Shown: one piece after another, positions 19,217 to 64,000 of the stretch
Layout: each line of letters starts with the position of its first letter
How positions within the stretch are numbered: position 1 is the first letter of the stretch
NCBI GenBank assembly: GCA_964016885.1
Contig: OZ024757.1
Span: 42,718,001-42,782,000, forward strand
Direction of reading: 5' to 3'
Length of the DNA stretch: 64,000 nucleotides
Source of the DNA: Eledone cirrhosa
Taxonomy: Eukaryota
Notes under the pieces: generated by a model
The model's input: the letters and a program-made list of their open reading frames with translations, nothing else
Told to the model about the DNA's origin: nothing
The model's database searches: none
Position numbers and translations under genes: made by a program

Positions 19217-19822
19217 CATTTGTCATTTTAGTCGTTTTAGAGTCATTTTAATCATTTATGATGCTGTTGTAGCCTTTCTAGAGTTATTTTAGTAATTTAT
19301 GATTCACTTTAACCCTTTTAGAGCCATTTATAGTCATTTTAGACGTTTCAGTCGTGTTAGAGTCATTCTAGTCAATTATGATACGGTTTTAGCATTTTAG
19401 TCATTGATGATGACGTTTTAGTCATTTATGATGCAGTTTCAGCCATTCTGTTGTAATATGGCAACATAAATGATTAAATGGCTCTAAAATGGCTAAAACA
19501 GCATCATATTTGACAAAAATGACTCGTAAATGAGTAAAACGGTATCATAAATGACTAAAATAACTCTAGAAAGGCTACTACAGCATCATAAATGATTAAA
19601 ATGACTCTAAAACGACTAAAACGTCTAAAATGACAAAAATGGCTTTAATATAGCTTAAACTGCATCATAAATGACTCAAACGATTAAAATGACTCCGAAA
19701 TGGCTAAAAATGACATCATAAATGGCTAAAATGACACTAAAGTGGCTAAAACGGACTGTTAAATTGCTAAATTGTCTCTAAAATGGCTAAAACGTCTTCA
19801 TAAATAAATAAAATGGCTAAAA
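19217..19822. repeat. AT-rich island 1 (606 bp): atypical left end, no inverted 30-mer arm
   Basis: T-tract-rich left half and A-tract-rich right half of a degenerate 41-bp repeat; matches the other islands from ~19315 onward. Confidence 0.95.
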
Positions 19823-22800
19823 CGTGGGTGCCGGACCGTAGTGCGCATGCGCCAAGGCCGCCGGACCGTAATGCGCATGCGCCAAGGCCGCCGGACCGTA
19901 GTGCGCATGCGCCAAGGCCGACTGACTGTACTGCGTATGTGTCATCGTCGCAGTACCGAACTGCGCATGCGCCAAGGCCGCCGGACCGTACTGCGCATGC
20001 GCCAAGGCCGCCGGACCGTAGTGCGCATGCGCCAAGGCCGCCGGACCGTAGTGCGCATGCACCAAGGCGGCCTGACTGTACTGCGCATGCATCAAGGTCC
20101 CAGTACCGTACTGCGCATGCGCAAAGGCCGCCGGACCGTAGTGCGCATGCGCCAAGGCCGCCGGACCGTAGTGCGCATGCGCCAAGGCCGCCGGACCATA
20201 CTGCGCATGCGCCAAGGCGGCCTGACTGTACTGCACATGCGTCAAGTTCGCAGTACCGAACTGCGCATGCGCTAAGGCCGCCGGACCGTACTGCGCATGC
20301 GCCAAGGGCGCCGGACCATAGGGCGCATGCGCCAAAGCCGCCGAACCGTAGTGCGCATGCGCCCCGGCCGCCGGACCGTACTGCGCATGCGCCAGAGCCG
20401 CCGAACCGTACTGCGCATGCGCCAAGGTCGCCGGACCATGCTGTGCATGCGCCAAGGCCGCCGGACCGTAGTGCTCATGCGCCAAGGCCGCCAGACCGTA
20501 GTGCGCATGCGCCAAGGCCGCCGAATCGTACTGCGCGTGCGCCAAGGCCGCCGAACCGCACTGCGCATGCGCCAAGGCCGCCGACCCTTAGTGCGCATGC
20601 GCCAAGGCCGCCGGACCGTACTGCGCATGCGCCAAGGCCGCCGGACCGTAGTGCGCATGCGCCAAGGCCGCCGGACCATACTGCGCATGCCCCAAGGCCG
20701 CCGGACCATAGTGCGCATGCGCCAAGGCCGCCTAACTGTACTGCGCATGCGTCAAGGTCGCAGTACCAAACTGCGCATGCGCCAAGGCCGCCGGACCGTA
20801 GTGCGCATGCGCCAAAGCCGCCGAACCGTAGTGCGCATGCGCAAAGGCCGCCGGACCAAACTGCGCATGCGCCAAGGCCGCCCACCGTAGTGCGCATGCG
20901 CTAAGGCCGCCTGACTGTACTGCGCATGCGTCAGACCACAGTACCGAGCTGCGCATGCGCTAAGGCCGCCGGACCGTAGTGCGCATGCGCCAAGGCCGCC
21001 GGACCAGACTGCGCATGCGCCGCTGTCGCTGGACCGTAGTGCGCATGCGCCAAGGCCGCCTGACTGTACTGCGCATGAGTCAAGGTCGCAGTACCGAACT
21101 GCGCATGCGCTAAGGCCGCCGGACCGTACTGCGCATGCGCCAAGGCAGCCGGACCGTAGTGCGCATGCGCCAAAGACGCCGAACCGTAGTGCGCATGCGC
21201 CCAAGCCGCCGGACCATACTGCGCATGCACCAAGGCCGCCGGACCGTACTGCGCATGCGCCAAGGCCGCCGAACCGTACTGCGCATGCGCCAAAGCCGCC
21301 GAACCGTAGTGCGCATGCGCCAAAGCCGCTGGACCGTAGTGCGCATGCGCCAAGGCCGCCGGACCGTAGTGCGCATGCGCCAAGGCCGCCGGACCATACT
21401 GCGCATGCGCCAAGGCCGCCGGACCGTAGTGCGCATGCGCCAAGGCCGCCGGACCGTAGTGCGCATGCGCCAAGGCCGGCGGACCAGACTGCGCATGCGC
21501 CAAGGCCGCCTGACTGTACTGCGCATGCGTGAATACCACAGTACCGAACTGCGCATGCGCTAAGGCCGCCGGACCTTAGTGCGCATGCGCCAAGGCCGCC
21601 TGGTTGTACTGCGCATGCCCCAAGGCCGCCCGACCGTAGTGCGCATGCGTCAAGGCCGCCGAACCGTAGTGCGCATGCGCCAAGGCCGCCGGACCGTAGT
21701 GCGCATGCGCCAAGGCCGCCTGACTGTACTGCGCATGCGTAACTGCGCATGCGCTAAGGCCGCCGGACCGTAGTGCGCATGCTCCAGGACCGCCGGATAT
21801 TACTGCGCATGCCCCAAGGCCGTCGGATCGTAGTGCGCAAGTGCCAAGGCCGCCAGACCGTAGTGCGCATGCGCCAAGACCGCCGAACCGTACTGCGCAT
21901 GCGCCAAGGCCGCCGAACCGTACTGCGCATGCGCCAAAGCCGCCGAACCGTAGAGCGCATGCGCCAAAGCCGCTGGACCGTAGTGCGCATGCGCCAAGGC
22001 CGCATGACCGTAGTGCGTCAAGGCCGCCCAACCGTAGTGCGCATGGGCGAAAGCCGCCCGACCGTACTGCGCATGCGCCAAGGCCGCAGTACCGTAGTGC
22101 GCATGCTACAAGCCGCAGTACCGTATTGCGCATGCGACAAGGCCGCAGTACCGTAGTGCGCATGCTACAAGCCGCAGTACCGTATTGCGCATGCGACAAG
22201 GCCGCAGTACCGTAGTGCGCATGCGCCAAGGCCACCGGACCGTAGTGCGCATGAGCCAAGGCCGCCGGACCGTACTGCGCATGCGCCAAGGCCGCCGGAC
22301 CGTAGTTCGCATGCGCCAGAGCCGCCGAACCGTAGTGCACATGCGCCAAGCCCGCCGGACCGTAGTGCGTATGCGCCAAGCTCGCCGGACCGTAGTGCGC
22401 ATGCGCCAAGGCCGCCTGACTGTACTGCGCATGCGTCAAGGTCCCAGTACCGAACTGCGCATGCGCTAAGGCCACCGGACCGTACTGCGCATGCGCCAAG
22501 GCCGCCGGACCGTAGTGCGCATGCTACAAGGCCGCAGTACCGTACTGCGCATGCTACAAGGCCGCAGTACCGTACTGCGCATGCGACAAGGCCGCAGTAC
22601 CGTAGTGCGCATGCGGCAAAGCCGCCGGACCGTAGTGCGCATGCGCCAAGGCCGCCTGACTGTACTGCGCATGCGCCAAGGCCGCCGGACCGTAGTGCGC
22701 ATGCGCCAAGGCCACCTAACTACTGCACATGCGTCAAGGTCGCAGTACCGAACTGCGCATGCGCTAAGGCCGCCGGACCGTACTGCGCATGCGCCAGGGC

Positions 22801-24017
22801 CGCCGGACCGCAGTGCGCATGCGCCAAAGCCGCCGAACCGTAGTGCGCATGCGCCAAGGCCGCCGGACCATACTGCGCTTGCGCCGCGGCGGCCGGACCG
22901 TAGTGCGCATGCGCCAAGGCCGCCGGACGGTAGTGCGCATGCGCCAAGGCCGCCTGACTGTACTGCGCATGCGTCAAGGCCGCAGTACCGAACTGCGTAT
23001 GGGCTAAGGCCGCCGGACCGTAGTGCGCATGCGCCAAGGCCGCCGGACAGTAGTGCGCATGCGCCAAGGCCGCCTAACTACTGCGCATGCGTCAAGGTCG
23101 CAGTACCGAACTGCGCATGCGCCAAGGCCGCCGGACCGTTGTGCGCATGCGCCAAGGCCGCTGGACCAGACTGCGCATGCTCCAAGGCCGCCGGACCGTA
23201 CTGCGCATGAGTCAAGGTCGCAGTACCGAACTGCGCATGCGCTAAGGTTGCCGGACCGTACTCCGCATGCGCCAAGGCAGCCGGACCGTAGTGCGCATGC
23301 GCCAAAGCCGCCGAACCGTAGTGCACATGCGCCCAAGCCGCCGGACCATACTGCGTATGCGCCAAGGCCGCCGGACCGTAGTGTGCATGCGCCCAGGCCG
23401 CCTGACTGTACTGCGCATGCGCCCAGGCCGCCGGACCGTACTGCGCATGCGCCAAGGCCGCCGGACCGTACTGCGCATGCGCCAAGGCCGCCGGACCGTA
23501 CTGCGCATGCGCCAAGGCCGCGGGACCGTACTGCGCATGCGCCAAGGCCGCGGGACCGTACTGCGCATGCGCCAAGGCCGCCGGACCGTAGTGCGCATGC
23601 GCCAAGGCCGCCGGACCGTACTGCGCATGCGCCAAGGCCGCTGAACCGTACTGCGCATGCGCCAAGGCCGCTGAACCGTACTGCGCATGCCCCAAGGCCG
23701 TCGGACCGTAGTCCGCATGTGCCAAGGCCGCCAGACCGTAGTGCGCATGCGCCAAGGCCGCCGAACCGTACTGCGCATGAGCCAAGGCCGCCGAACCGTA
23801 CTGCGCATGAGCCAAGGCCGCCGAACCGTACTGCGCATGCGCCAAGGCCGCCGAACCGTACTGCGCATGCGCCAAAGCCGCCGGACCGTAGTGCGCATGC
23901 GCCAAAGCCGCTGGACCGTAGTGCGCATGCGCCAAGGCCACTGGACCGTACTGCGCATGTGCCAAGGCCGCTGCGGTAGTGCGCATGCGCCAAGGCCGCC
24001 GGACCTTTGTGCGCGTG

Positions 24018-24984
24018 CGGTTCGGCGGCCTTGGCGCATGCGCACTACGGTTCGGCGGCTTTGACGCACACGCACTACGTTCCGGCAGATTTGGCGCACG
24101 CACACTACGGTCCGGCGGTCTTGGCGCATGCGCACTTCGGTCCGGCGACCTTGCCGCATGCGCACTACGTTCCGGTGGCCTTGGCACATGCGCAGTACGG
24201 TCCGGCGGCTTTTGCGCATGCTCACTACGGTCTGGCAGCCTTGGCGCATGCGCACTACGGTCCAGCGGTCTTGGCGCATGCGCACTACGTTCCGGTGGCC
24301 TTGGCGCATGCGCAGTACGGTCCAGTGGCCTTGGCGCATGCGTAGTAAGGTCCGGCGCCCTTAGCGCATGCGCAGTACGGTCCGGAGCCTTTGCGCATGC
24401 GCACTACTGTCCGGTGGCCTTGGCGCATGCGCACTACGGTCCGACGGCCTTGGCGCATGCGCACTAAGGTCCGGCGGCTTTGGTGCATGCGCACTACGGT
24501 CTGGCATCATTGGCGCATGCGCAGTACGGTCCGGCGGCCTTGGCGCATGCGCACTACGGTCCGGTGGCCTTGGCGCATGCGCACTACGGTCCGGCGGCCT
24601 TGGCGCATGCGCACTAAGGTCCGGCGGCTTTGGTGCATGCGCACTACGGTCTGGCATCATTGGCGCATGCGCACTACGGTCCGGCGGCCTTGGCGCATGC
24701 GCAGTACGGCCCGGCAACCTTGGCGTATGCGCACTACGGTCTGTCGGCCTTGGCGCATGCGCACTACTGTCCGACGGCCTTGGCGCATGCGCAGTACGGT
24801 CCAGCGGCCTTGACGCATGCGCACTACGGTCCGGCGGCCTTGGCGCATGCGCACTACGGTCTGGCAGCCTTGGCGCATGCGCACTACGGTCTGGCAGCCT
24901 TGGCGCATGCGCACTACGGTCCGACGTCCTTGGCGCATGCGTACTACGGTCCGACGTCCTTGGCGCATGTGCAGTACGGTCCGG
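24018..24984 (-). repeat. Inverted 30-mer arm preceding island 2
   Basis: Reverse-complement monomers (TTGGCGCATGCGCACTACGGTCCGGCGGCC) from junction GGACCTTTGTGCGCGTG|CGGTT up to the island. Confidence 0.95.
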
Positions 24985-25556
24985 ATGACTTTTTAGCCAT
25001 TTTAAGCCTTTATGTTGCCATATTTAGCCATTTTTGAGTCATTTTAGTAATTTATGATGCAGTTTTTACCATTTTAGAGCCATTTATAGTCATTTTAGAC
25101 GTTTCAGTCGTGTTAGAGTCATTCTAGTCAATTATGATACGGTTTTAGCATTTTAGTCGTTGATGATGACGTTTTAGTCATTTATGATGCAGTTTCAGCC
25201 ATTCTGTTGTAATATGGCAACATAAATGATTAAATGGCCCTAAAATGGCTAAAACAGCATCATATTTGACAAAAATGACTCGTAAATGAGTAAAACGGTA
25301 TCATAAATGACTAAAATAACTCTAGAAAGGCTACTACAGCATCATAAATGATTAAAATGACTCTAAAACGACTAAAACGTCTAAAATGACAAAAATGGCT
25401 TTAATATAGCTTAAACTGCATCTTAAATGACTAAAACTACTAAAATGACCCCGAAATGGCTAAAATGACACTAAAGTGGCTAAAACGGACTGTTAAATTG
25501 CTAAATTGTCTCTAAAATGGCTAAAACGTCTTCATAAATAAATAAAATGGCTAAAA
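24985..25556. repeat. AT-rich island 2 (572 bp, short type)
   Basis: ATGACTTTTTAGCC...ATGGCTAAAA; internally inverted 41-bp subrepeats. Confidence 0.96.
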
Positions 25557-27910
25557 CGTGGGTGCCGGACCGTAGTGCGCATGCGCCAAGGCCGCCGGAC
25601 CGTAATGCGCATGCGCCAAGGCCGCCGGATCGTAGTGCGCATGCGCCAAGGCCGACTGACTGTACTGCGCATGTGTCATCGTCGCAGTACCGAACTGCGC
25701 ATGCGGTAAGGCCGCCGGACCGTACTGCGCATGCGCCAAGGCCGCCGGACCGTAGTGCGCAGGCGCCAAGGCCGCCGGACCGTAGTGCGCATGCACCAAG
25801 GCCGCCTGAGTGTACTGCGCATGCATCAAGGTCCCAGTACCGTACTGCGCAAAGGCCGCCGGACAGTAGTGCGCATGCGCCAGAGCCGCCGAACCGTAGT
25901 GCGCATGCGCCAAGGCCGCCCGACCGTAGTGCGCATGGGCCAAAGCCGCCCAACCGTACTGCGCATGCGCTAAGTCCGTAGTACCGTACTGCGCATGCTA
26001 CAAGGCCGCAGTACCGTACTGCGCATGCGACAAGGCCGCAGTACCGTAGTGCGCATGCTACAAGCCGCAGTACCGTATTGCGCATGCGACAAGGCCGCAG
26101 TACCGTAGTGCGCATGCGCCAAGGCCACCGGACCGTAGTGCGCATGAGCCAAGGCCGCCGGACCGTACTGCGCATGCGCCAAGGCCGCCGGACCGTAGTT
26201 CGCATGCGCCAGAGCCGCCGAACCGTAGTGCACATGCGCCAAGCCCGCCGGACCGTAGTGCGTATGCGCCAAGCTCGCCGGACCGTAGTGCGCATGCGCC
26301 AAGGCCGCCTGACTGTACTGCGCATGCGTCAAGGTCCCAGTACCGAACTGCGCATGCGCTAAGGCCACCGGACCGTACTGCGCATGCGCCAAGGCCGCCG
26401 GACCGTAGTGCGCATGCTACAAGGCCGCAGTACCGTACTGCGCATGCTACAAGGCCGCAGTACCGTACTGCGCATGCGACAAGGCCGCAGTACCGTAGTG
26501 CGCATGCGGCAAAGCCGCCGGACCGTAGTGCGCATGCGCCAAGGCCGCCTGACTGTACTGCGCATGCGCCAAGGCCGCCGGACCGTAGTGCGCATGCGCC
26601 AAGGCCACCTAACTACTGCACATGCGTCAAGGTCGCAGTACCGAACTGCGCATGCGCTAAGGCCGCCGGACCGTACTGCGCATGCGCCAGGGCCGCCGGA
26701 CCGCAGTGCGCATGCGCCAAAGCCGCCGAACCGTAGTGCGCATGCGCCAAGGCCGCCGGACCATACTGCGCTTGCGCCGCGGCGGCCGGACCGTAGTGCG
26801 CATGCGCCAAGGCCGCCGGACGGTAGTGCGCATGCGCCAAGGCCGCCTGACTGTACTGCGCATGCGTCAAGGCCGCAGTACCGAACTGCGTATGGGCTAA
26901 GGCCGCCGGACCGTAGTGCGCATGCGCCAAGGCCGCCGGACAGTAGTGCGCATGCGCCAAGGCCGCCTAACTACTGCGCATGCGTCAAGGTCGCAGTACC
27001 GAACTGCGCATGCGCCAAGGCCGCCGGACCGTTGTGCGCATGCGCCAAGGCCGCTGGACCAGACTGCGCATGCTCCAAGGCCGCCGGACCGTACTGCGCA
27101 TGAGTCAAGGTCGCAGTACCGAACTGCGCATGCGCTAAGGTTGCCGGACCGTACTCCGCATGCGCCAAGGCAGCCGGACCGTAGTGCGCATGCGCCAAAG
27201 CCGCCGAACCGTAGTGCACATGCGCCCAAGCCGCCGGACCATACTGCGTATGCGCCAAGGCCGCCGGACCGTAGTGTGCATGCGCCCAGGCCGCCTGACT
27301 GTACTGCGCATGCGCCCAGGCCGCCGGACCGTACTGCGCATGCGCCAAGGCCGCCGGACCGTACTGCGCATGCGCCAAGGCCGCCGGACCGTACTGCGCA
27401 TGCGCCAAGGCCGCGGGACCGTACTGCGCATGCGCCAAGGCCGCGGGACCGTACTGCGCATGCGCCAAGGCCGCCGGACCGTAGTGCGCATGCGCCAAGG
27501 CCGCCGGACCGTACTGCGCATGCGCCAAGGCCGCTGAACCGTACTGCGCATGCGCCAAGGCCGCTGAACCGTACTGCGCATGCCCCAAGGCCGTCGGACC
27601 GTAGTCCGCATGTGCCAAGGCCGCCAGACCGTAGTGCGCATGCGCCAAGGCCGCCGAACCGTACTGCGCATGAGCCAAGGCCGCCGAACCGTACTGCGCA
27701 TGAGCCAAGGCCGCCGAACCGTACTGCGCATGCGCCAAGGCCGCCGAACCGTACTGCGCATGCGCCAAAGCCGCCGGACCGTAGTGCGCATGCGCCAAAG
27801 CCGCTGGACCGTAGTGCGCATGCGCCAAGGCCACTGGACCGTACTGCGCATGTGCCAAGGCCGCTGCGGTAGTGCGCATGCGCCAAGGCCGCCGGACCTT
27901 TGTGCGCGTG

Positions 27911-28877
27911 CGGTTCGGCGGCCTTGGCGCATGCGCACTACGGTTCGGCGGCTTTGACGCACACGCACTACGTTCCGGCAGATTTGGCGCACGCACACTA
28001 CGGTCCGGCGGTCTTGGCGCATGCGCACTTCGGTCCGGCGACCTTGCCGCATGCGCACTACGTTCCGGTGGCCTTGGCACATGCGCAGTACGGTCCGGCG
28101 GCTTTTGCGCATGCTCACTACGGTCTGGCAGCCTTGGCGCATGCGCACTACGGTCCAGCGGTCTTGGCGCATGCGCACTACGTTCCGGTGGCCTTGGCGC
28201 ATGCGCAGTACGGTCCAGTGGCCTTGGCGCATGCGTAGTAAGGTCCGGCGCCCTTAGCGCATGCGCAGTACGGTCCGGAGCCTTTGCGCATGCGCACTAC
28301 TGTCCGGTGGCCTTGGCGCATGCGCACTACGGTCCGACGGCCTTGGCGCATGCGCACTAAGGTCCGGCGGCTTTGGTGCATGCGCACTACGGTCTGGCAT
28401 CATTGGCGCATGCGCAGTACGGTCCGGCGGCCTTGGCGCATGCGCACTACGGTCCGGTGGCCTTGGCGCATGCGCACTACGGTCCGGCGGCCTTGGCGCA
28501 TGCGCACTAAGGTCCGGCGGCTTTGGTGCATGCGCACTACGGTCTGGCATCATTGGCGCATGCGCACTACGGTCCGGCGGCCTTGGCGCATGCGCAGTAC
28601 GGCCCGGCAACCTTGGCGTATGCGCACTACGGTCTGTCGGCCTTGGCGCATGCGCACTACTGTCCGACGGCCTTGGCGCATGCGCAGTACGGTCCAGCGG
28701 CCTTGACGCATGCGCACTACGGTCCGGCGGCCTTGGCGCATGCGCACTACGGTCTGGCAGCCTTGGCGCATGCGCACTACGGTCTGGCAGCCTTGGCGCA
28801 TGCGCACTACGGTCCGACGTCCTTGGCGCATGCGTACTACGGTCCGACGTCCTTGGCGCATGTGCAGTACGGTCCGG
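27911..28877 (-). repeat. Inverted 30-mer arm preceding island 3
   Basis: Copy of 24018-24984 at +3,893. Confidence 0.95.
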
Positions 28878-29449
28878 ATGACTTTTTAGCCATTTTAAGC
28901 CTTTATGTTGCCATATTTAGCCATTTTTGAGTCATTTTAGTAATTTATGATGCAGTTTTTACCATTTTAGAGCCATTTATAGTCATTTTAGACGTTTCAG
29001 TCGTGTTAGAGTCATTCTAGTCAATTATGATACGGTTTTAGCATTTTAGTCGTTGATGATGACGTTTTAGTCATTTATGATGCAGTTTCAGCCATTCTGT
29101 TGTAATATGGCAACATAAATGATTAAATGGCCCTAAAATGGCTAAAACAGCATCATATTTGACAAAAATGACTCGTAAATGAGTAAAACGGTATCATAAA
29201 TGACTAAAATAACTCTAGAAAGGCTACTACAGCATCATAAATGATTAAAATGACTCTAAAACGACTAAAACGTCTAAAATGACAAAAATGGCTTTAATAT
29301 AGCTTAAACTGCATCTTAAATGACTAAAACTACTAAAATGACCCCGAAATGGCTAAAATGACACTAAAGTGGCTAAAACGGACTGTTAAATTGCTAAATT
29401 GTCTCTAAAATGGCTAAAACGTCTTCATAAATAAATAAAATGGCTAAAA
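28878..29449. repeat. AT-rich island 3 (572 bp, short type)
   Basis: Appears identical to island 2, including ATGACCCCGAAA. Confidence 0.96.
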
Positions 29450-31709
29450 CGTGGGTGCCGGACCGTAGTGCGCATGCGCCAAGGCCGCCGGACCGTAATG
29501 CGCATGCGCCAAGGCCGCCGGATCGTAGTGCGCATGCGCCAAGGCCGACTGACTGTACTGCGCATGTGTCATCGTCGCAGTACCGAACTGCGCATGCGGT
29601 AAGGCCGCCGGACCGTACTGCGCATGCGCCAAGGCCGCCGGACCGTAGTGCGCAGGCGCCAAGGCCGCCGGACCGTAGTGCGCATGCACCAAGGCCGCCT
29701 GAGTGTACTGCGCATGCATCAAGGTCCCAGTACCGTACTGCGCAAAGGCCGCCGGACAGTAGTGCGCATGCGCCAGAGCCGCCGAACCGTAGTGCGCATG
29801 CGCCAAGGCCGCCCGACCGTAGTGCGCATGGGCCAAAGCCGCCCAACCGTACTGCGCATGCGCTAAGTCCGTAGTACCGTACTGCGCATGCTACAAGGCC
29901 GCAGTACCGTACTGCGCATGCGACAAGGCCGCAGTACCGTAGTGCGCATGCGCCAAGGCCACCGGACCGTAGTGCGCATGAGCCAAGGCCGCCGGACCGT
30001 ACTGCGCATGCGCCAAGCCCGCCGGACCGTAGTGCGCATGCGCCAGAGCCGCCGAACCGTGGTGCACATGCGCCAAGCCCGCCGGACCGTAGTGCGCATG
30101 CGCCAAACCCGCCGGACCGTAGTGCGCATGCGCCAAGGCCGCCTGACTGTACTGCGCATGCGTCAAGGTCCCAGTACCGAACTGCGCATGCGCTAAGGCC
30201 ACCGGACCGTACTGCGCATGCGCCAAGGCCGCCGGACCTTAGTGCGCATGCGCCAGAGCCGCCGAACCGTGGTGTGCATGCGCCAAGGCCGCCGGACCAT
30301 ACTGCGCATGCGCCAAAGCCGCCTGACTGTACTGCGCATGCGCCAAGGCCGCCTGACTGTACTGCGCATGCGCCAAGGCCACCTAAATGTACTGCGCATG
30401 GTCGCAGTACCGAACTGCGCATGCGCCAAGGCCGCCGGACCGTACTGCGAATGCGCCGAGGCCGCCGGACCGTAGTGCGCATGCGCCAAAGCCGCCGAAC
30501 CGTAGTGCGCATGCGCCCAAGCCGCCGGACCATACTGCGCATGCACCAAGGCCGCCGGACCGTAGTGCGCATGCGCCAAGGCCGCCTGACTGTACTGCGC
30601 ATGCGTCAAGGCCCCAGTACCGAACTGCGCATGCGCTAAGGCCGCCGGACCGTAGTGCGCATGCTCCAAAACCGCTGGATCTTACTGCGCATGCCCCAAG
30701 GCCGCCGGACCATACACCGCATGCGCCAAGGCCGCCGGACCATACTCCGCATGCGCCAAGGCCGCCGGACCGTTGTGCGCATGCGCCAAGGCCGCCTGAC
30801 GACTGCGCATGCGTCAAGGTCGCAATACCGAACTGCGCATGCGCTAAGGCCGGCGGACCGTAGTGCGCATTCGCCAAGGCCGCCGGACCGTAGTGCGCAT
30901 TCGCCAAGGCCATCGGACCGTAGTGCGCATGCGCCAAGGCCGCCGGGCCGTAGTGCGCATGCGCCAAGGCCGCCTAACTGTACTGCGCATGCGTCAAGGT
31001 CGCAGTACCGAACTGCGCATGCGCCAAGGCCGCCGGACCGTACTGCGCATGCGCCAAGGCAGCCGGACCGTAGTGCGCATGCGCCCAAGCCGCCGGACCA
31101 TACTGCGCATGCGCCAAGGCCGCCGGACCGTAGTGCGCATGCGTCAAGGCCGCAGTACCGAACTGCGCATGCGCTAAGGCCGCAGTACCGAACTGCGCAT
31201 GCGCCAAGGCCGCCGGACCGTACTGCGCATGCGCCAAGGACGCCGGACCGTAGTGCGCATGCGCCAAAGACGCCGAACAGTCGTGCCCATGCGCCAAGAC
31301 CGCCGGACCGTACTGCGCATGCCCCAAAGCCGCCGACCCGTAGTGCGCATGCACCAAGGCCACCGGACCGTACTGCGCATGCTCTAAGACCGTCGGACCG
31401 TAGTGCGCATGCCCCAAATCCGTCGGACCGTAGTGCGCATGTGCCAAGGCCGCCAGACCGTAGTGCGCATGCGCCAAGGCCGCCGAACCGTACTGCGCAT
31501 GCGCCAAGGCCGCCGAACCGTACTGCGCATGCGCCAAGGCCGCCGAACCGTACTGCGCATGCGCCAAGGCCGCCGAACCGTAGTGCGCATGCGCCAAAGC
31601 CGCTGGACCGTAGTGCGCATGCGCCAAGGCCACTGGACCGTACTGCGCATGTACCAAGGCCGCCGTCGTAGTGCGCATGCGCCAATGCCGCCGGACCTTT
31701 GTGCGCATG

Positions 31710-50700: not shown

Positions 50701-51373
50701 ACCGTAGTGCGCATGCGTCAAGGCCGCAGTACCGAACTGCGCATGCGCTAAGGCCGCAGTACCGAACTGCGCATGCGCCAAGGCCGCCGGACCGTACTGC
50801 GCATGCGCCAAGGACGCCGGACCGTAGTGCGCATGCGCCAAAGACGCCGGACCGTAGTGCGCATGCGCCAAAGACGCCGAACAGTCGTGCGCATGCGCCA
50901 AGGCCGCTGAACCGTACTGCGCATGCCCCAAAGCCGCCGACCCGTAGTGCGCATGCACCAAGGCCACCGGACCGTACTGCGCATGCTCTAAGACCGTCGG
51001 ACCGTAGTGCGCATGCCCCAAGACCGTCGGACCGTAGTGCGCATGCCCCAAGGCCGTCGGACCGTAGTGCGCATGCGCCAAGGCCGCCAGACCGTAGTGC
51101 GCATACGCCAAGGCCGCCGAACCGTACTGCGCATGCGCCAAGGCCGCCGAACCGTACTGCGCATGCGCCAAGGCCGCCGAACCGTACTGCGCATGCGCCA
51201 AGGCCGCCGAACCGTACTGCGCATGCGCCAAGGCCGCCGAACCGTACTGCGCATGCGCCAAAGCCGCTGGACCGTAGTGCGCATGCGCCAAGGCCACTGG
51301 ACCGTACTGCGCATGTACCAAGGCCGCCGTCGTAGTGCGCATGCGCCAATGCCGCCGGACCTTTGTGCGCATG

Positions 51374-52370: not shown

Positions 52371-52965
52371 ATGACTTTTTGGCCATTTTAAGCCTTTATG
52401 TTGCCATATTTAGCCATTTTTGAGTCATTTTAGTAATTTATGATGCAGTTTTTACCATTTTAGAGCCATTTATAGTCATTTTAGACGTTTCAGTCGTGTT
52501 AGAGTCATTCTAGTCAATTATGATACGGTTTTAGCATTTTAGTCGTTGATGATGACATTTTAGTCATTTATGATGCAGTTTCAGCCATTCTGTTGTAATA
52601 TGGCAACATAAATGATTAAATGGCCCTAAAATGGCTAAAACAGCATCATATTTGACAAAAATGACTCGTAAATGAGTAAAACGGTATCGTAAATGACTAA
52701 AATAACTCTAGAAAGGCTACTACAGCATCATAAATGATTAAAATGACTCTAAAACGACTAAAACGTCTAAAATGACAAAAATGGCTTTAATATAGCTTAA
52801 ACTGCATCTTAAATGACTAAAACTACTAAAATGACTCCGAAATGGCTAAAAAAAAACATCATAAATGGCTAAAATGACACTAAAGTGGCTAAAACGGACT
52901 GTTAAATTGCTAAATTGTCTCTAAAATGGCTAAAACGTCTTCATAAATAAATAAAATGGCTAAAA
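52371..52965. repeat. AT-rich island 8 (595 bp, long type b)
   Basis: Copy of island 6 with about three substitutions. Confidence 0.96.
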
Positions 52966-55372
52966 CGTGGGTGCCGGACCGTAGTGCGCATGCGCCAAGG
53001 CCGCCGGACCGTAATGCGCATGCGCCAAGGCCGCCGGACCGTAGTGCGCATGCGCCAAGACCGACTGACTGTACTGCGCATGTGTCATCGTCGCAGTACC
53101 GCACTGCGCATGCGGTAAGGCCGCCGGACCGTACTGCGCATGCGCCAAGGCCGCCGGACCGTAGTGCGCAGGCGCCAAGGCCGCCGGACCGTAGTGCGCA
53201 TGCACCAAGGCCGCCTGAGTGTACTGCGCATGCATCAAGGTCCCAGTACCGTACTGCGCATGCGCAAAGGCCGCCGGACAGTAGTGCGCATGCGCCAGAG
53301 CCGCCGAACCGTAGTGCGCATGCGCCAAGGCCGTCGGACCGTAGTGCGCATGGGCCAAAGCCGCCCGACCGTACTGCGCATGCGCTAAGTCCGTAGTACC
53401 GTACTGCGCATGCTACAAGGCCGCAGTACCGTATTGCGCATGCGACAAGGCCGCAGTACCGTAGTGCGCATGCGCCAAGGCCACCGGACCGTAGTGCGCA
53501 TGAGCCAAGGCCGCCGGACCGTACTGCGCATGCGCCAAGCCCGCCGGACCGTAGTGCGCATGCGCCAAGGCCGCCTGACTGTACTGCGCATGCGCCAAGG
53601 CCGCCTGACTGTACTGCGCATGCGTCAAGGTCCCAGTACCGAACTGCGCATGCGCTAAGGCCACCGGACCGTACTGCGCATGCGCCAAGGCCGCCGGACC
53701 GTAGTGCGCATGCGCCAGAGCCGCCGAACCCTGGTGTGCATGCGCCAAGGCCGCCGGACCATACTGCACATGCGCCAAAGCCACCTGACTGTACTGCGCA
53801 TGTGCCAAGGCCGCCTGACTGTACTGCGCATGCGACAAGGCCGCCAGACCGTAGTGCGCATGCGCCAAGGCCACCTAACTGTACTGCGCATGCGTCAAGG
53901 TCGCAGTACCGAACTGCGCATGCGCCAAGGCCGCCGGACCGTACTGCGCATGCGCCAAGGCCGCCGGACCGTAGTGCGCATGCGCCAAAGCCGCCGAACC
54001 GTAGTGCGCATGCGCCAAGGCCGCCGGACCATACTGCGCACGCATGCGCGCGGCCGCAGGACCGTAGTGCGCATGCGCCAAGGCCGCCTGGTTGTACTGC
54101 GCATGCGCCAAGGCCGCCGGACCGTAGTGCGCATGCGCCAAGGCCGCCTGACTGTATTGCGCATGCGTCAAGGCCGCAGTACCGAACTGCGTATGGGCTA
54201 AGGCCGCCGGACCGTACTGCGCATGCGCCAAGGCCGCCGGACCGTAGTGCGCATGCGCCAAGGCCGCCTAACTGTACTGCGCATGCGTCAAGGTCGCAGT
54301 ACCGAACTGCGCATGCGCTAAGGCCGCCGGACCGTACTGCGCATGCGCCAAGGCCGCCGTACCGTAGTGCGCATGCGCCAAAGCCGCCGAACCGTAGTGC
54401 GCATGCGCCAAGGCCGCCGGACCAGACTGCGCATGCGCCATGGCCGCCGGACCGTAGTGCGCATGCGCCAAGGCCGCCTGACCGTAGTGCGCATGCGCCA
54501 AGGCCGCCTGACTGTACTGCGCATGCGCCAAGGCCGCCGGACCGTAGTGCGCATGCGCCAAGGCCGCCTGACTGTACTGCGCATGCGGCAAGACCACAGT
54601 ACCGAACTGCGCATGCGCTAAGGCCGCCGGACCGTAGTGCGCATGCGCCAAGGCCGCCGGACCGTAGTGTGCATGCGCCAAGACCGCCTAACTGTACTGC
54701 GCATGCGCCAAGGCCACCTAACTGTACTGCGCATGCGTCAAGGTCGCAGTACCGAACTGCGCATGCGCCAAGGCCGCCGGACCGTACTGCGAATGCGCCA
54801 AGGCCGCCGAACCGTAGTGCGCATGCGCCAAGGCCGCCTGACTGTACTGCGCATGCGTCAAGGCCGCAGTACCGAACTGCGCATGCGCTAAGGCCGCCGG
54901 ACCGAACTGCGTATGGGCTAAGGCCGCCGGACCGTACTGCGCATGCGCCAAGGCCGCCGGACCGTAGTGCGCATGCGCCAAAGCCGCCGAACCGTAGTGC
55001 GCATGCGCCAAGGCCGCCTAACTGTACTGCGCATGCGTCAAGGTCGCAGTACCGAACTGCGCATGCGCCAAGGCCGCCGGACCGTACTGCGAATGCGCCA
55101 AGGCCGCCGGACCGTAGTGCGCATGCGCCAAAGCCGCCGAACCGTAGTGCGCATGCGCCAAGGCCGCCGGACCATACTACGCACGCATGCGCCGCGGCCG
55201 CAGGGCCGTAGTGCGCATGCGCCAAGGCCGCCGGACCGTACTGCGCATGCGCCAAGGCCGCCGGACCGTAGTGCGCATGCGCCAAGGCCGCCGGACCATA
55301 CTGCGCATGCGCCAAGGCCGCCAGACCGTAGTGCGCATGCGCCAAGGCCGCCTAACTGTACTGCGCATGCGC

Positions 55373-55392
55373 ACTACGGTCCGGCGGCCTTG
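55373..55392 (-). other. Single 20-bp linker inverted between two GCGCATGCGC palindromes
   Basis: ACTACGGTCCGGCGGCCTTG is the exact reverse complement of CAAGGCCGCCGGACCGTAGT; flanked by GCGCATGCGC at 55363-55372 and 55393-55402. Confidence 0.95.
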
Positions 55393-56799
55393 GCGCATGC
55401 GCTAAGGCCGCCGGACCGTACTGCACATGCGCCAATGCCGCCGGACCGTAGTGCGCATGCGCCAAAGCCGCCGGACCGTAGTGCGCATGCGCCAAGGCCG
55501 CCTGGTTGTACTGCGCATGCGCCAAGGCCGCCGGATCGTAGTGCGCATGCGTCAAGGCCGCAGTACCGAACTGCGTATGGGCTAAGGCCGCCGGACCGTA
55601 CTGCGCATGCGCCAAGGCCGCCGGACCGTAGTGCGCATGCGTCAAGGTCGCAGTACCGAACTGCGCATGCGCTAAGGCCGCCGGACCGTACTGCGCATGC
55701 GCCAAGGCCGCCGGACCGTAGTGCGCATGTGCCAAAGCCGCCGAACCGTAGTGCGCATGCGCCAAGGCCGCCTAACTGTACTGCGCATGCGTCAAGGTCG
55801 CAGTACCGAACTGCGCATGCGCCAAGGCCGCCGGACCGTACTGCGAATGCGCCAAAGCCGCCGAACCGTAGTGCGCATGCGCCAAGGCCGCCGGAACATA
55901 CTGCGCACGCATGCCGCGGTCGCAGGACCGTAGTGCGCATGCGCCAAGGCCGCCTGGTTATACTGCGCATGCGCCAAGGCCGCCGGACCGTAGTGCGCAT
56001 GCGCCAAGGCCGCCTGACTGTACTGCGCATGCGTCAAGGCCGCAGTACCGAACTGCGTATGGGCTAAGGCCGCCGGACCGTACTGCGCATGCGCCAAGGC
56101 CGCCGGACCGTAGTGCGCATGCGCCAAGGCCGCCTAACTGTACTGCGCATGCGTCAAGGTCGCAGTACCGAACTGCGCATGCGCTAAGGCCGCCGGACCG
56201 TACTGCGCATGCGCCAAGGCCGCGGGACCGTAGTGCGCATGCGCCAAAGCCGCCGGACCGTAGTGCGCATGCGCCAAGGCCGCCGGATCGTAGTGCGCAT
56301 GCGCCAAGGCCGCCTGACTGTACTGCGCATGCGTCAAGGCCGCAGTACCGAACTGCGTATGGGCTAAGGCCGCCGGACCGTACTGCGCATGCGCCAAGAC
56401 CGCCGGACCGTAGTGCGCATGCGTCAAGGTCGCAGTACCGAACTGCGCTTGCGCTAAGGCCGCCGGACCGTACTGCGCATGCGCCAAGGCCGCCGGACCG
56501 TAGTGCTCATGCGCCAAAGCCGCCGAACCGTAGTGCGCATGCGCCAAGGCCGCCGGACCAGACTGCGCATGCGCCAAGGCCGCCGGACCGTAGTGCGCAT
56601 GCGCCAAGGCCGCCGGACCGTAGTGCGCATGCGCCAAGGCCGCCTGACCGTAGTGCGCATGCGTCAAGGCCGCAGTACCGAACTGCGTATGGGCTAAGGC
56701 CGCCGGACCGTACTGCGCATGCGCCAAGGCCGCCGGACCGTACTGCGCATGCGCCAAGGCCGCCGGACCATACTGCGCATGCGCCAAGGCCGCCGTACA

Positions 56800-57175
56800 G
56801 CGCACTACGGTCTGGCATCATTGGCGCATGCGCACTACGGCCCGGCGGCCTTGGCGCATGCGCAGTACGGCCCGGCAACCTTGGCGTATGCGCACTACGG
56901 TCTGTCGGCCTTGGCGCATGCGCACTACTGTCCGGCGGCCTTGGCGCATGCGCAGTACGGTCCAGCGGCCTTGACGCATGCGCACTACGGTTCGGCGGCC
57001 TTGGCGCATGCGTACAACGGTCCGGCGGCCTTGGCGCATGCGCACTACGGTCTGGCAGCATTGGCGCATGCGCACTACGGTCCGCCGTCCTTGGCGCATG
57101 CGCACTACGGTCCGCCGTCCTTGGCGCATGCGCACTACGGTCCGACGTCCTTGGCGCATGTGCAGTACGGTCCGG
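56800..57175 (-). repeat. Truncated inverted 30-mer arm preceding island 9
   Basis: Unique junction GGCCGCCGTACA|GCGCACTACGG; only the island-proximal ~12 monomers are present. Confidence 0.93.
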
Positions 57176-57747
57176 ATGACTTTTTAGCCATTTTAAGCCT
57201 TTATGTTGCCATATTTAGCCATTTTTGAGTCATTTTAGTAATTTATGATGCAGTTTTTACCATTTTAGAGCCATTTATAGTCATTTTAGACGTTTCAGTC
57301 GTGTTAGAGTCATTCTAGTCAATTATGATACGGTTTTAGCATTTTAGTCGTTGATGATGACGTTTTAGTCATTTATGATGCAGATTCAGCCATTCTGTTG
57401 TAATATGGCAACATAAATGATTAAATGGCCCTAAAATGGCTTAAACAGCATCATATTTGACAAAAGTGACTCGTAAATGAGTAAAACGGTATCATAAATG
57501 ACTAAAATAACTCTAGAAAGGCTACTACAGCATCATAAATGATTAAAATGACTCTAAAACGACTAAAACGTCTAAAATGACAAAAATGGCTTTAATATAG
57601 CTTAAACTGCATCTTAAATGACTAAAACTACTAAAATGACTCCGAAATGGCTAAAATGACACTAAAGTGGCTAAAACGGACTGTTAAATTGCTAAATTGT
57701 CTCTAAAATGGCTAAAACGTCTTCATAAATAAATAAAATGGCTAAAA
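57176..57747. repeat. AT-rich island 9 (572 bp, short type)
   Basis: Short-type markers (TTTTTAGCC, GGTATCAT) plus private substitutions (GCAGATTC, GGCTTAAACAG, CAAAAGTGAC). Confidence 0.96.
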
Positions 57748-59829
57748 CGTGGGTGCCGGACCGTAGTGCGCATGCGCCAAGGCCGCCGGACCGTAATGCG
57801 CATGCGCCAAGGCCGCCGGATCGTAGTGCGCATGCGCCAAGGCCGACTGACTGTACTGCGCATGTGTCATCGTCGCAGTACCGAACTGCGCATGCGGTAA
57901 GGCCGCCGGACCGTACTGCGCATGCGCCAAGGCCGCCGGACCGTAGTGCGCAGGCGCCAAGGCCGCCGGACCGTAGTGCGCATGCACCAAGGCCGCCTGA
58001 GTGTACTGCGCATGCATCAAGGTCCCAGTACCGTACTGCGCAAAGGCCGCCGGACAGTAGTGCGCATGCGCCAGAGCCGCCGAACCGTAGTGCGCATGCG
58101 CCAAGGCCGCCCGACCGTAGTGCGCATGGGCCAAAGCCGCCCGACCGTACTGCGCATGCGCTAAGTCCGTAGTACCGTACTGCGCATGCTACAAGGCCGC
58201 AGTACCGTACTGCGCATGCGACAAGGCCGCAGTACCGTAGTGCGCATGCGCCAAGGCCACCGGACCGTAGTGCGCATGAGCCAAGGCCGCCGGACCGTAC
58301 TGCGCATGCGCCAAGCCCGCCGGACCGTAGTGCGCATGCGCCAGAGCCGCCGAACCGTGGTGCACATGCGCCAAGCCCGCCGGACCGTAGTGCGCATGCG
58401 CCAAGCCCGCCGGACCGTAGTGCGCATGCGCCAAGGCCGCCTGACTGTACTGCGCATGCGTCAAGGTCCCAGTACCGAACTGCTCATGCGCTAAGGCCAC
58501 CGGACCGTACTGCGCATGCGCCAAGGCCGCCGGACCTTAGTGCGCATGCGCCAGAGCCGCCGAACCGTGGTGTGCATGCGCCAAGGCCGCCGGACCATAC
58601 TGCGCATGCGCCAAAGCCGCCTGACTGTACTACGCATGCGCCAAGGCCGCCTGACTGTACTGCGCATGCGACAAGGCCGCCGGACCGTTGTGCGCATGCG
58701 CCAAGGCCACCTAAATGTACTGCGCATGGTCGCAGTACCGAACTGCGCATGCGCCAAGGCCGCCGGACCGTACTGCGAATGCGCCAAGGCCGCCGGACCG
58801 TAGTGCGCATGCGCCAAAGCCGCCGAACCGTAGTGCGCATGCGCCAAGGCCGCCTGACTGTACTGCGCATGCGTCAAGGTCCCAGTACCGAACTGCGCAT
58901 GCGCTAAGGCCACGGGACCGTACTGCGCATGCGCCAAGGCCGCCGGACCGTTGTGCGCATGCGCCAGAGCCGCCGAACCGTGGTGTGCATGCGCCAAGGC
59001 CACCGGACCATACTGCGCATGCGCCAAAGCCGCCTGACTGTACTGCGCATGCGCCAAGGCCGCCTGACTGTACTGCGCATGCGACAAGGCCGCCGGACCG
59101 TAGTGCGCATGCGCCCAAGCCGCCGGACCATACTGCGCATGCGCCAAGGCCGCCGGACCGTAGTGCGCATGCGTCAAGGCCGCAGTACCGAACTGCGCAT
59201 GCGCTAAGGCCGCAGTACCGAACTGCGCATGCGCTAAGGCCGCAGTACCGAACTGCGCATGCGCCAAGGCCGCCGGACCGTACTGCGCATGCGCCAAGGA
59301 CGTCGGACCGTAGTGCGCAGGCGCCAAAGACGCCGGACCGTAGTGCGCATGCGCCAAAGACGCCGAACAGTCGTGCCCATGCGCCAAGACCGCCGGACCG
59401 TACTGCGCATGCGCCAAATCCGCTGAACCGTACTGCGCATGCCCCAAAGCCGCCGACCCGTAGTGCGCATGCACCAAGGCCACCGGACCGTACTGCGCAT
59501 GCTCTAAGACCGTCGGACCGTAGTGCGCATGCCCCAAGGCCGTCGGACCGTAGTGCGCATGCGCCAATGCCGCCAGACCGTAGTGCGCATACGCCAAGGC
59601 CGCCGAACCGTACTGCGCATGCGCCAAGGCCGCCGAACCGTACTGCGCATGCGCCAAGGCCGCCGAACCGTACTGCGCATGCGCCAAGGCCGCCGAACCG
59701 TACTGCGCATGCGCCAAAGCCGCTGGACCGTAGTGCGCATGCGCCAAGGCCACTGGACCGTACTGCGCATGTACCAAGGCCGCCGTCGTAGTGCGCATGC
59801 GCCAATGCCGCCGGACCTTTGTGCGCATG

Positions 59830-60736
59830 CGGTACGGTGGCCTTGGCGCATGCGCACTAAGGTCTAACGGCCTTGGCGCATGCGCACTACGGTTCGGCGG
59901 CTTTGACGCACACGGACTACGTTCCGTCAGATTTGGCGCACGCACACTACGGTCCGGCGGTCTTGGCGCATGCGCACTACGGTCCGGCGACCACGCCGCA
60001 TGCGCACTACGTTCCGGTGGCCTTGGCACATGCGCAGTACCGTCCGGCGGCTTTTGCGCATGCGCACTACGGTCTGGCAGCCTTGGCGCATGCGCACTAC
60101 GGTCCAGCGGCCTTGGCGCATGCGCACTACGTTCCGGTGGCCTTGGCGCATGCGCAGTACGGTCCAGTGGCCTTGGCGCATGCGTAGTAAGGTCCGGCGC
60201 CCTTAGCGCATGCGCAGTACGGTCCGGCAGCCTTGGCGCATGCGCACTAAGGGCCAGCGGTCTTTGCGCATGCGCACAACGGTCCGGTGGCCTTGGCGCA
60301 TGCGCACTACGGTCCGGCGGCCTTGGCGCATGCGCACTAAGGTCCGGCGGCTTTGGTGCATGCGCACTACGGTCTGGCATCATTGGCGCATGCGCACTAC
60401 GGTCCGGCGGCCTTGGCGCATGCGCAGTACGGCTGGCAACCTTGGCGTATGCGCACTACGGTCTGTCGGCCTTGGCGCATGCGCACTACTGTCCGGCGGC
60501 CTTGGCGTATGCGCAGTACGGTCCAGCGGCCTTGGCGCATGCGCACTACGGTTCGGCGGCCTTGGCGCATGCGCACTACGGTTCGGCGGCCTTGGCGCAT
60601 GCGTACAACGGTCCGGCGGCCTTGGCGCATGCGCACTAAGGTCCGGCGGCCTTGGCGCATGCGCACTACGGTCCGACGTCCTTGGCGCATGCGCACTACG
60701 GTCCGACGTCCTTGGCGCATGTGCAGTACGTTCCGG
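59830..60736 (-). repeat. Inverted 30-mer arm preceding island 10
   Basis: Reverse-complement monomers, standard junction. Confidence 0.95.
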
Positions 60737-61330
60737 ATGACTTTTTGGCCATTTTAAGCCTTTATGTTGCCATATTTAGCCAATTTTGAGTCATTTTAGT
60801 AATTTATGATGCAGTTTTTACCATTTTAGAGCCATTTATAGTCATTTTAGACGTTTCAGTCGTGTTAGAGTCATTCTAGTCAATTATGATACGGTTTTAG
60901 CATTTTAGTCGTTGATGATGACGTTTTAGTCATTTATGATGCAGTTTCAGCCATTCTGTTGTAATATGGCAACATAAATGATTAAATGGCCCTAAAATGG
61001 CTAAAACAGCATCATATTTGACAAAAATGACTCGTAAATGAGTAAAACGGTATCGTAAATGACTAAAATAACTCTAGAAAGGCTACTACAACATCATAAA
61101 TGATTAAAATGACTCTAAAACGACTAAAACGTCTAAAATGACAAAAATGGCTTTAATATAGCTTAAACTGCATCTTAAATGACTAAAACTACTAAGATGA
61201 CTCCGAAATGGCTAAAAAAAACATCATAAATGGCTAAAATGACACTAAAGTGGCTAAAACGGACTGTTAAATTGCTAAATTGTCTCTAAAATGGCTAAAA
61301 CGTCTTCATAAATAAATAAAATGGCTAAAA
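60737..61330. repeat. AT-rich island 10 (594 bp, long type a)
   Basis: Shares CTACAACATC and ACTAAGATG markers with islands 5 and 7. Confidence 0.96.
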
Positions 61331-64000
61331 CGTGGGTGCCGGACCGTAGTGCGCATGCGCCAAGGCCGCCGGACCGTAATGCGCATGCGCCAAGGCCGCC
61401 GGACCGTAGTGCGCATGCGCCAAGACCGACTGACTGTACTGCGCATGTGTCATCGTCGCAGTACCGCACTGCGCATGCGGTAAGGCCGCCGGACCGTACT
61501 GCGCATGCGCCAAGGCCGCCGGACCGTAGTGCGCAGGCGCCAAGGCCGCCGGACCGTAGTGCGCATGCACCAAGGCCGCCTGAGTGTACTGCGCATGCAT
61601 CAAGGTCCCAGTACCGCACTGCGCATGCGCAAAGGCCGCCGGACAGTAGTGCGCATGCGCCAGAGCCGCCGAACCGTAGTGCGCATGCGCCAAGGCCGCC
61701 GGACCGTAGTGCGCATGGGCCAAAGCCGCCCGACCGTACTGCGCATGCGCTAAGTCCGTAGTACCGTACTGCGCATGCTACAAGGCCGCAGTACCGTACT
61801 GCGCATGCGACAAGGCCGCAGTACCGTAGTGCGCATGCGCCAAGGCCACCGGACCGTAGTGCGCATGAGCCAAGGCCGCCGGACCGTACTGCGCATGCGC
61901 CAAGCCCGCCGGACCGTAGTGCGCATGCGCCAGAGCCGCCGAACCGTGGTGCACATGCGCCAAGCCCGCCGGACCGTAGTGCGCATGCGCCAAGGCCGCC
62001 GGACCATACACCGCATGCGCCAAGGCCGCCGGACCATACTCCGCATGCGCCAAGGCCGCCGGACCGTTGTGCGCATGCGCCAAGGCCGCCTGACGACTGC
62101 GCATGCGTCAAGGTCGCAATACCGAACTGCGCATGCGCTAAGGCCGGCGGACCGTAGTGCGCATTCGCCAAGGCCGCCGGACCGTAGTGCGCATTCGCCA
62201 AGGCCGCCGGACCGTAGTGCGCATGCGCCAAGGCCGCCGGACCGTAGTGCGCATGCGCCAAGGCCGCCTAACTGTACTGCGCATGCGTCAAGGTCGCAGT
62301 ACCGAACTGCGCATGCGCTAAGGCCGCCGGACCGTACTGCGCATGCGCCAAGGCCGCCGGACCGTAGTGCGCATGCGCCAAAGCCGCCGAACCGTAGTGC
62401 GCATGCGCCAAGGTCGCCGGACCTGACTGCGCATGCGCCGCGGCCGCCGGACCGTACTGCGCATGCCCCAAGGCCGCCTGGTTGTACTGCGCATGCCCCA
62501 AGGCTGCCTGGTTGTACTGCTAATGCCCCAAGGCCGCCCGACCGTAGTGCGAATGCGCCAAGGCCGCCTGACCGTAGTGCGCATGCGCCAAGGCCGCCGG
62601 AGCGTAGTGCGCATGCGTCAAGGTCGCAGTACCGAACTGCGCATGCGCTAAGGCCGCCGGACCGAACTGCGTATGGGCTAAGGCCGCCGGACCGTACTGC
62701 GCATGCGCCAAAGCCGCCGGACCGTAGTGCGCATGCGTCAAGGTCGCAGTACCGAACTGCGCATGCGCTAAGGCCGCCGGACCGTACTGCGCATGCGCCA
62801 AGGCCGCCGGACCGTACTGCGCATACCCCAAGGCCGCCTGGTTGTACTGCGCATGCCCCAAGGCCGCCCGACCGTAGTGCGCATGCGCCAAAGCCGCCGA
62901 ACCGTAGTGCGCATGCGCCAAGGCCGCCTAACTGTACTGCGCATGCGTCAAGGTCGCAGTACCGAACTGCGCATGCGCCAAGGCCGCCGGACCGTACTGC
63001 GAATGCGCCAAGGCCGCCGGACCGTAGTGCGCATGCGCCAAAGCCGCCGAACCGTAGTGCGCATGCGCCAAGGCCGCCGGACCATACTGCGCACGCATGC
63101 GCCGCGGCCGCAGGACCGTAGTGCGCATGCGCCAAGGCCGCCTGGTTGTACTGCGCATGCGCCAAGGCCGCCGGACCGTAGTGCGCATGCGCCAAGGCCG
63201 CCTGACTGTACTGCGCATGCGTCAAGGCCGCAGTACCGAACTGCGTATGGGCTAAGGCCGCCGGACCGTAGTGCGCATGCGCCAAGGCCGCCGGACCGTA
63301 GTGCGCATGCGCCAAGGCCGCCGGACCATACTGCGCATGCGCCAAGGCCGCCGGACCGTAGTGCGCATGCGCCAAGGCCGCCTAACTGTACTGCGCATGC
63401 GTCAAGGTCGCAGTACCGTACTGCGCATGCGCCAAGGCCGCCGAACCGTACTGCGCATGCGCCAAGGCCGCCGAACCGTACTGCGCATGCGCCAAGGCCG
63501 CCGAACCGTACTGCGCATGCGCCAAAGCCGCCGAACCGTAGTGCGCATGCGCCAAAGCCGCTGGACCGTAGTGCGCATGCGCCAAGGCCACTGGACCGTA
63601 CTGCGCGTGCTCTAAGACCGTCGGACCGCAGTGCGCATGCCCCAAGGCCGTCGGACCGTAGTGCGCATGCGCCAAGGCCGCCAGACCGTAGTGCGCATGC
63701 GCCAAGGCCGCCGAACCGTACTGCGCATGCGCCAAGGCCGCCGAACCGTACTGCGCATGCGCCAAGGCCGCCGAACCGTACTGCGCATGCGCCAAGGCCG
63801 CCGAACCGTACTGCGCATGCGCCAAAGCCGCCGAACCGTAGTGCGCATGCGCCAAAGCCGCTGGACCGTAGTGCGCATGCGCCAAGGCCACTGGACCGTA
63901 CTGCGCATGTACCAAGGCCGCCGTCGTAGTGCGCATGCGCCAAGGCCGCCGGAACTTTGTGCGCATGCGCCAAGGCCGCCGGACCGTAGTGCGCATGCGC

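Follow-up and report, generated by a model that had tools for sequence, protein, structure and literature searches.

The whole stretch of DNA analysed here (the window, 64,000 nucleotides) is one GC-rich satellite with a period of 30 bp, in 2,137 nominal copies, interrupted by ten AT-rich islands, and its content is 30-mer or island throughout, with nothing else in it. In the explanation that we consider probable, this satellite has a higher-order repeat of 2.3-7.2 kb in which a fragment of a 41-bp repeat was captured once and was then spread by unequal exchange, not by transposition. The fixed landmarks of the higher-order repeat are a run of inverted 30-mers and a 0.6-kb fragment of head-to-head 41-mers.

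The 30-bp unit (1-64000, forward strand) has about 67% GC and a self-complementary core, and 1954 monomers were parsed, 260 of them in nine reversed arms. Single monomers differ by about 9-11% from the commonest type while blocks of them are only 0-3% apart, and ordered monomer variants recur as a block, which makes the array a higher-order repeat. An orientation map drawn from the window's own words consists of forward runs, 848-5788 bp long between modules, and nine reversed runs that each terminate at an island. The map also has reversed runs of 100 bp near 481 and near 4341, and close to 55351 one monomer is flipped. Four true switches of orientation lie within the self-complementary core (593, 4454, 55363 and 55393), 11 further flagged sites having been excluded because they were read as small-indel or variant monomers. 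The single flipped 30-mer (55363-55402, reverse strand) is inverted exactly from one self-complementary core to the next, and no other sequence takes part. The island-free part of the array (1-19216) has an older higher-order structure of its own, in which repeats recur about 8.1-9.1 kb apart, and the blocks that it has in common with the island-bearing part are short, 207-220 bp at best.

The earlier note had described a module of forward 30-mers, a fixed junction, inverted 30-mers, reversed and then forward 41-mers, and again forward 30-mers, and this layout is borne out together with its spacings: the right ends of the ten islands (19811, 25545, 29438, 33028, 40244, 45461, 47737, 52954, 57736 and 61319) reproduce all nine listed values exactly. 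The reversed 30-mer arm is present at nine of the ten islands and is about 375-1006 bp long. In module 2, the junction (hereafter J) and the reversed arm occupy 24003-24984 on the reverse strand and are followed by island 2 (24985-25556, 572 bp), in which reversed 41-mers are followed, from a centre near 25214, by forward 41-mers. The same arrangement, with J and arm on the reverse strand, is found in module 3 (27896-28877, island 28878-29449, identical to island 2), module 4 (31695-32467, island 32468-33039, 572 bp), module 5 (38830-39661, island 39662-40255, 594 bp, the stretch compared with public reads), module 6 (43866-44877, island 44878-45472, 595 bp, with the diagnostic monomer series lost from its right flank), module 7 (46323-47154, island 47155-47748, 594 bp), module 8 (51359-52370, island 52371-52965, 595 bp) and module 10 (59815-60736, island 60737-61330, 594 bp). 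Module 9 has a short reversed arm without J (56795-57175, reverse strand, start approximate) before an island of 572 bp (57176-57747). The junction that had been called fixed is thus present, in two sub-types, in eight of the nine armed modules, module 9 having a different one; J is bordered by satellite sequence on both sides, and it also occurs twice, island-free, outside the range first assigned to it (473 and 4334). Nine-fold completeness holds for the arms, but island 1 (19217-19822) has no reversed arm and its left end is rearranged, the outer part repeating the island's right arm in inverted form at 74 of 76 positions. The extent given to the islands also needs a small correction, as the 8 bases that close them on the right come from a variant 30-mer segment and are not island sequence.

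Each island is a degenerate palindrome of head-to-head 41-mers with an arm-to-arm identity of about 69% and a 26-base centre that is identical in all ten. The A/T strand bias flips at this centre: T-tracts lie to its left and A-tracts, spaced at about 9, 20 and 41 bases, to its right. The predicted DNA fold has a z score of -19 against 100 shuffles. Both island ends sit within about 6 bases of one 41-mer phase. The 30-mer and the island are unrelated, as had been claimed for the two repeats, since 244 of 300 shuffles score equally well. Variants private to the arms were found as reported before, the first motif occurring 11 times in reversed arms without a mirrored copy and the second 17 times with one; the 30-mer arms mirror each other across the island at 83-86% identity, a value about equal to that of a one-monomer-shift control in nine of nine modules. 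In forward runs (for instance 19831-22400), two variant monomer types recur next to each other as a 60-bp sub-unit. Together these two types make up about one fifth of forward monomers, yet they are found in none of the 260 monomers of the reversed arms, and only 15 of 1419 forward windows of 26 monomers are equally free of the types missing from those arms. As the reversed arms are without monomer types common in forward runs, they are not merely flipped local sequence, and they may have arrived from another array along with the island.

The modules are variable-length higher-order repeats that were likely copied passively by unequal exchange. Parsed monomer by monomer, the modules have a flanking monomer order in common, and the flanks that had been said to vary freely do so in number, but not in order. 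The two longest near-exact repeats are tandem duplications on the forward strand, one at 22127-29951 (period 3893 bp, 0 mismatches in 3932 bp) and the other a two-island block at 38002-52883 (period 7493 bp, 2 mismatches in 7389 bp), and the breakpoints of both lie within forward 30-mers. The modules counted in the earlier note do have the layout ascribed to them, but they are not independent, modules 2 and 3 being near-exact duplicates, as are the pairs 5-6 and 7-8. Module 4 is a mosaic in which a J of the type of modules 5-10 is joined to a short island. Conserved monomer order, tandem duplication of blocks and mosaics are the pattern that unequal exchange leaves in higher-order repeats.

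The near fixity of the island that had been put forward is real, at about 99% conservation, but it does not significantly exceed that of the aligned right flank. Among six distinct units, 12 of 572 island sites were variable against 13 of 482 flank sites (p=0.55), and a second right-flank comparison of six units gave 12 of 572 against 18 of 512 (p=0.19). Units 3, 6 and 7 were left out, 3 and 7 as duplicates of 2 and 5 and 6 for its lost right flank, and with six units the power of the test is low. Island 1 compared with island 2 gave 7 differences in 477 island positions and 7 in 278 flank positions (p=0.40). Flank windows of 300 bp yielded p values of 0.012-0.018 in favour of a slower island; these are discounted, since an indel of 6 bp close to the end of these flank windows throws the alignment off, and a 480-bp window enclosing them has fewer variable sites, 13 against 16. 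The same indel spoiled the ungapped tests with 300- and 450-bp flanks, and a whole-arm alignment figure of 5.4% was spoiled by out-of-register monomers. The reversed arms differ between modules about twice as much as the islands do (at least 1.8% against 0.9%). The constant length of the island would follow from its having no near-identical neighbour available for slippage, and selection would be unneeded to account for it. An island divergence equal to that of the adjacent monomers had been named beforehand as a sign of passive co-amplification, and this is largely what was found, since the islands are not significantly less divergent than the monomers aligned next to them.

Versions of the site without an island persist in the first 19 kb of the array. 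The 8-mer that closes all ten islands on the right is also found three times without an island (633, 4494 and 8048), each time after an intact monomer core and in the monomer register. The diagnostic monomers that follow islands also follow two of the three, and at two of the three the 8-mer stands one monomer after J and four reversed monomers whose homologues open the module arms. Version 1 (473-640) comprises J, the four reversed monomers, a return point that is a 40-bp perfect palindrome (578-617, the longest in the window), one forward monomer, the variant 8-mer and the diagnostic downstream monomers, whereas version 2 (4334-4501) has J, four reversed monomers, a switch in the core and the 8-mer but has lost the downstream series. 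Version 3 (8026-8200, forward strand) lacks both island and inversion and has the 8-mer in register with the monomers and followed by the diagnostic series. The island-free copies of J are about 10% different from those of the modules over 279 bases around J, and two of the three island-free 8-mers share a second variant with a related type of monomer found at 2889 and 12659. The path from this lineage through the island-free form to the island form includes C-to-T changes at CpG, which would give the direction of change.

The satellite preceded the island, and the suggestion that an element had seeded the satellite is therefore contradicted at this locus. The inversion probably preceded the island as well, and the island likely occupies the former point of return to the forward orientation: because island-free versions of the site persist, two of them with the same J, the island is likely to have joined an existing satellite at an inversion point. 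Alternatively, recombination between an island copy and a version-3 site could have produced the island-free copies that have J. Derivation of both 41/30 junctions from one ancestral junction was considered and rejected, since the right-hand 8-mer is a satellite variant; the join on the right interrupts a monomer variant that already existed, and thus there were two junctions and not one.

These observations suggest a route in four steps. A strand switch at the self-complementary core would have created the inversion, and the hairpin-prone return point would then have broken and been replaced by the 41-mer fragment, through a 3-base microhomology on the right; the fragment may have come from another array in company with most of the reversed arm. 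PMC7999016 describes perfect palindromes as prone to break and as stabilised by spacers or mismatches. The fragment now keeps the two 30-mer arms about 0.6 kb apart. Unequal exchange among 30-mers would have multiplied the block. Finally, a later switch between the two arms of island 1 likely removed its reversed run, the arm-to-arm identity there being 74/76, against at best 60/76 in island 2 and 59/76 in island 5. The caveat in the earlier note, that one old inversion was later amplified, is the part of it that the data support.

Seven sequencing runs were found, of which four contain part of the stretch; no RNA run was listed as containing it, which says nothing about expression. Island 5 with 60-base flanks was compared with four runs. 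One run (X1) possibly has the same source as the window and is not independent, while X5 and X6 are other samples from one study. Contigs of X1 match the left junction over 39617-39711 with 1 difference and also contain the left arm, and a further match at 39874-40291 has 3 differences and 1 gap. Raw reads starting at 39613, in the last reversed monomers, number 557 in X5 and 287 in X6, those starting at 40312, in the first forward monomers, number 451 and 156, and depth in both samples is continuous across the two island/30-mer junctions. Read support thus covers the island/30-mer junctions; at the island centre the X1 contig has about 17 letters left of the axis, fewer than a 31-letter rule for support demands.

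The reads also point to a wider family of islands. Records resembling the 41-mer have a summed word depth of up to 11,369, against 126-434 for island-specific contigs, and the 41-mer is therefore a wider family. The summed depth of the 30-mer, a figure that is not a copy number, is about 240,000 against the same 126-434, which points to islands as a minority feature of the satellite. A second, shorter island class joins 39832 to 40263, with 88 bases identical to the left arm, 116 other letters and forward 30-mers; it has a depth of 249.8 in X1 and is represented by one contig in X4, which has another species label, and by two reads each in X5 and X6. The X1 depths of this class and of the left-junction contig (184.4) add up to that of the shared left-arm contig (434.2), and there may therefore be two island classes with a common left arm, unless the sum is due to chance. 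At loose ends at 40266/40274, 109 X5 reads fit a left junction about 37 bases shorter, and 38 X6 reads have reversed 41-mer-like sequence directly before the monomer core. Loose ends at 39711-39729 adjoin a likely restriction-fragment end and were not counted as new junctions, and among the loose ends listed, the sequence beyond the flanks is mostly 30-mer-like. Because 41-mers and 30-mers meet repeatedly in the reads, one local capture is insufficient to explain all of them. The deeper X1 left-arm contig (39708-39745) has indels and changes closer to those of island 1 (19290-19320) than to those of islands 2-10, and the island family may therefore be wider, with the nine armed modules as a single sub-lineage of it.

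Drosophila FB and sea-urchin TU are foldback transposons with modular inverted arms of tandem repeats, and the long inverted arms of tandem repeats seen here had suggested that the module is an amplified element of this kind. Within the window that reading fails, as the arms are unmirrored, breakpoints lie away from module ends and island-free sites keep the register intact; moreover, neither a target-site duplication of 8-10 bp nor a unique terminus was found in modules 2 and 5, in the 12-bp flanks of the island and of the interval from J to the island. The copy boundaries point the same way, with the two longest duplications breaking in forward 30-mer runs. It is a different proposition, which we still regard as unlikely, that the module descends from a foldback-type transposon (Mutator-, Rehavkus- or Tetris-like) with 30-mers outside and 41-mers inside, of which a copy without its middle joined or seeded the array and, now dead, was spread by exchange. 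Such an ancestry would agree with the nested inverted layout, the position of both island ends at the same 41-mer phase, and the occurrence in reads of several 41/30 junction types and of the second island class, including under a second species label. Satellites are also known to grow from foldback arms, according to PMC4079207 and PMC12581902, and the Tetris element of Drosophila virilis (PMC4079207) and Rehavkus-like elements (PMC12581902) are described there with modular inverted tandem-repeat arms of variable repeat number, as here. The present modules nevertheless differ from foldback transposons, whose defining features are taken from PMC4079207, in having no outer flanking domain or terminus and no 8-10-bp duplication, and in being tandem and copied by exchange instead of dispersed. 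Neither of the two modules inspected has a target-site duplication or unique terminus, a mirror identity of 83-86% is about what a one-monomer shift gives, a monomer variant that existed beforehand is cut at the right junction, and the window is 30-mer or island throughout, the 17 ORFs at 23900-28000 being repeat translations, all of which argue against it.

A selective explanation, in which the dyad is kept as a (peri)centromeric or boundary chromatin unit with an AT-rich, hairpin-capable core between GC-rich arrays that putatively bind protein, seems to us quite doubtful. Its appeal lies in a convergent likeness to cassettes of Tribolium freemani, in the existence of more than one island class that places 41-mers next to 30-mers, in the strong predicted fold with A-tracts at about 9, 20 and 41 bases, and in islands that are somewhat less variable than the reversed arms. 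Yet island conservation is not significantly above that of the aligned right flank, the first 19 kb of the array are island-free with island-free versions of the site persisting, the island arms are only about 69% alike, and summed depth suggests a minority feature. A structural role of dyads has been proposed, but not shown, for Tribolium. Fission-yeast centromeres have an AT-rich centre with inverted repeats on both sides, as here. Their organization (central core, imr, otr) includes one multi-kilobase non-repetitive core per chromosome, whereas the array has many repeat-derived cores of 0.6 kb, 2-7 kb apart. That the layout is an assembly artefact, produced by chimeric or duplicated reads in a satellite, is very improbable, for both island junctions are found in X1 contigs and in raw reads of two other samples, and modules differ by heritable variants and indels; the 3,932-bp block with 0 mismatches could still be a false duplicate, and no long read spans a module.

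With capture and unequal exchange as the preferred history, the nearest layout to that of the modules is given by the centromeric TfSat01/TfSat03 macro-dyads of Tribolium freemani. In PMC12581902, arrays of the major satellite switch orientation at conserved inversion points without spacers, and a second satellite forms dyad cassettes of about 4 kb with a conserved centre and microsatellite ends. The two systems are alike in the dyad cassette of a second satellite, uneven arm lengths and near-identical copies of the junctions. The present array likewise has sub-arrays of opposite orientation with conserved inversion points (J in eight of nine modules and in two island-free copies) and a second satellite intercalated as a dyad whose centre is conserved (26 bases, ten of ten), and by this analogy it is a Tribolium-type macro-dyad in layout, known here from one 64-kb window. 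The main monomer here differs, however, in being a GC-rich 30-mer with a self-complementary core, and in contrast to T. freemani the cassette is of about 0.6 kb and made of degenerate 41-mers, the reversed arm has a short length of 0.4-1 kb, and the modules have island-free versions of their site next to them. The TmSat1/TmSat2 macro-dyads of Tribolium madens are similar in layout, but PMC13081366 derives both satellites from one 110-bp unit, while the repeats here are unrelated. The same source states that macro-dyads are documented only in Tribolium and that their function is untested. Other primary reports of macro-dyads were not found in open-access text (supplements excluded), nor was this pair of 30-mer and 41-mer satellites, which may be described elsewhere, and exact-pattern searches gave no match in the viral contigs, metagenome contigs or prokaryote genomes scanned.

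Conserved inversion points of satellite macro-dyads were previously read as functional hints. The array described here shows a look-alike conservation of about 99% while neighbouring monomers are about equally conserved, and it keeps likely precursor states beside finished modules, which together suggest a neutral route to the macro-dyad layout. Comparison of junctions with aligned flanks, combined with a search for island-free versions, may serve as a control in macro-dyad studies. If the host is not Tribolium, the range of the layout would be widened; a GC-rich 30-mer would be unlike the satellites described there. A more far-reaching proposal by analogy, which we hold to be rather improbable, is that of a second, independent origin of the two-satellite macro-dyad beside that in Tribolium, in which a satellite with a strand-switch site in its monomer would repeatedly form inversions and fix a fragment of a second repeat at their divergent centre, and the dyads would be structural units of centromeric or boundary chromatin; the window would then preserve a building series from plain site through bare inversion and inversion with insert to rearranged insert.

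A coding function was rejected, because the 17 ORFs of at least 100 aa that overlap 23900-28000 are all translations of the repeat with a 10-residue period. None of 17 weak Rfam matches in 23900-26000 reached the gathering score, and they were mostly hairpin models placed on the two inversion points. When distinct monomers are compared, variation in the 30-mer is lowest in the core, and palindrome-guided repair or protein binding could each be a sufficient cause of this. The core is a 12-base alternating purine-pyrimidine stretch that we take to be NRF1-motif-like and Z-DNA-prone, and the 41-mer contains words that are presumably YY1-like.
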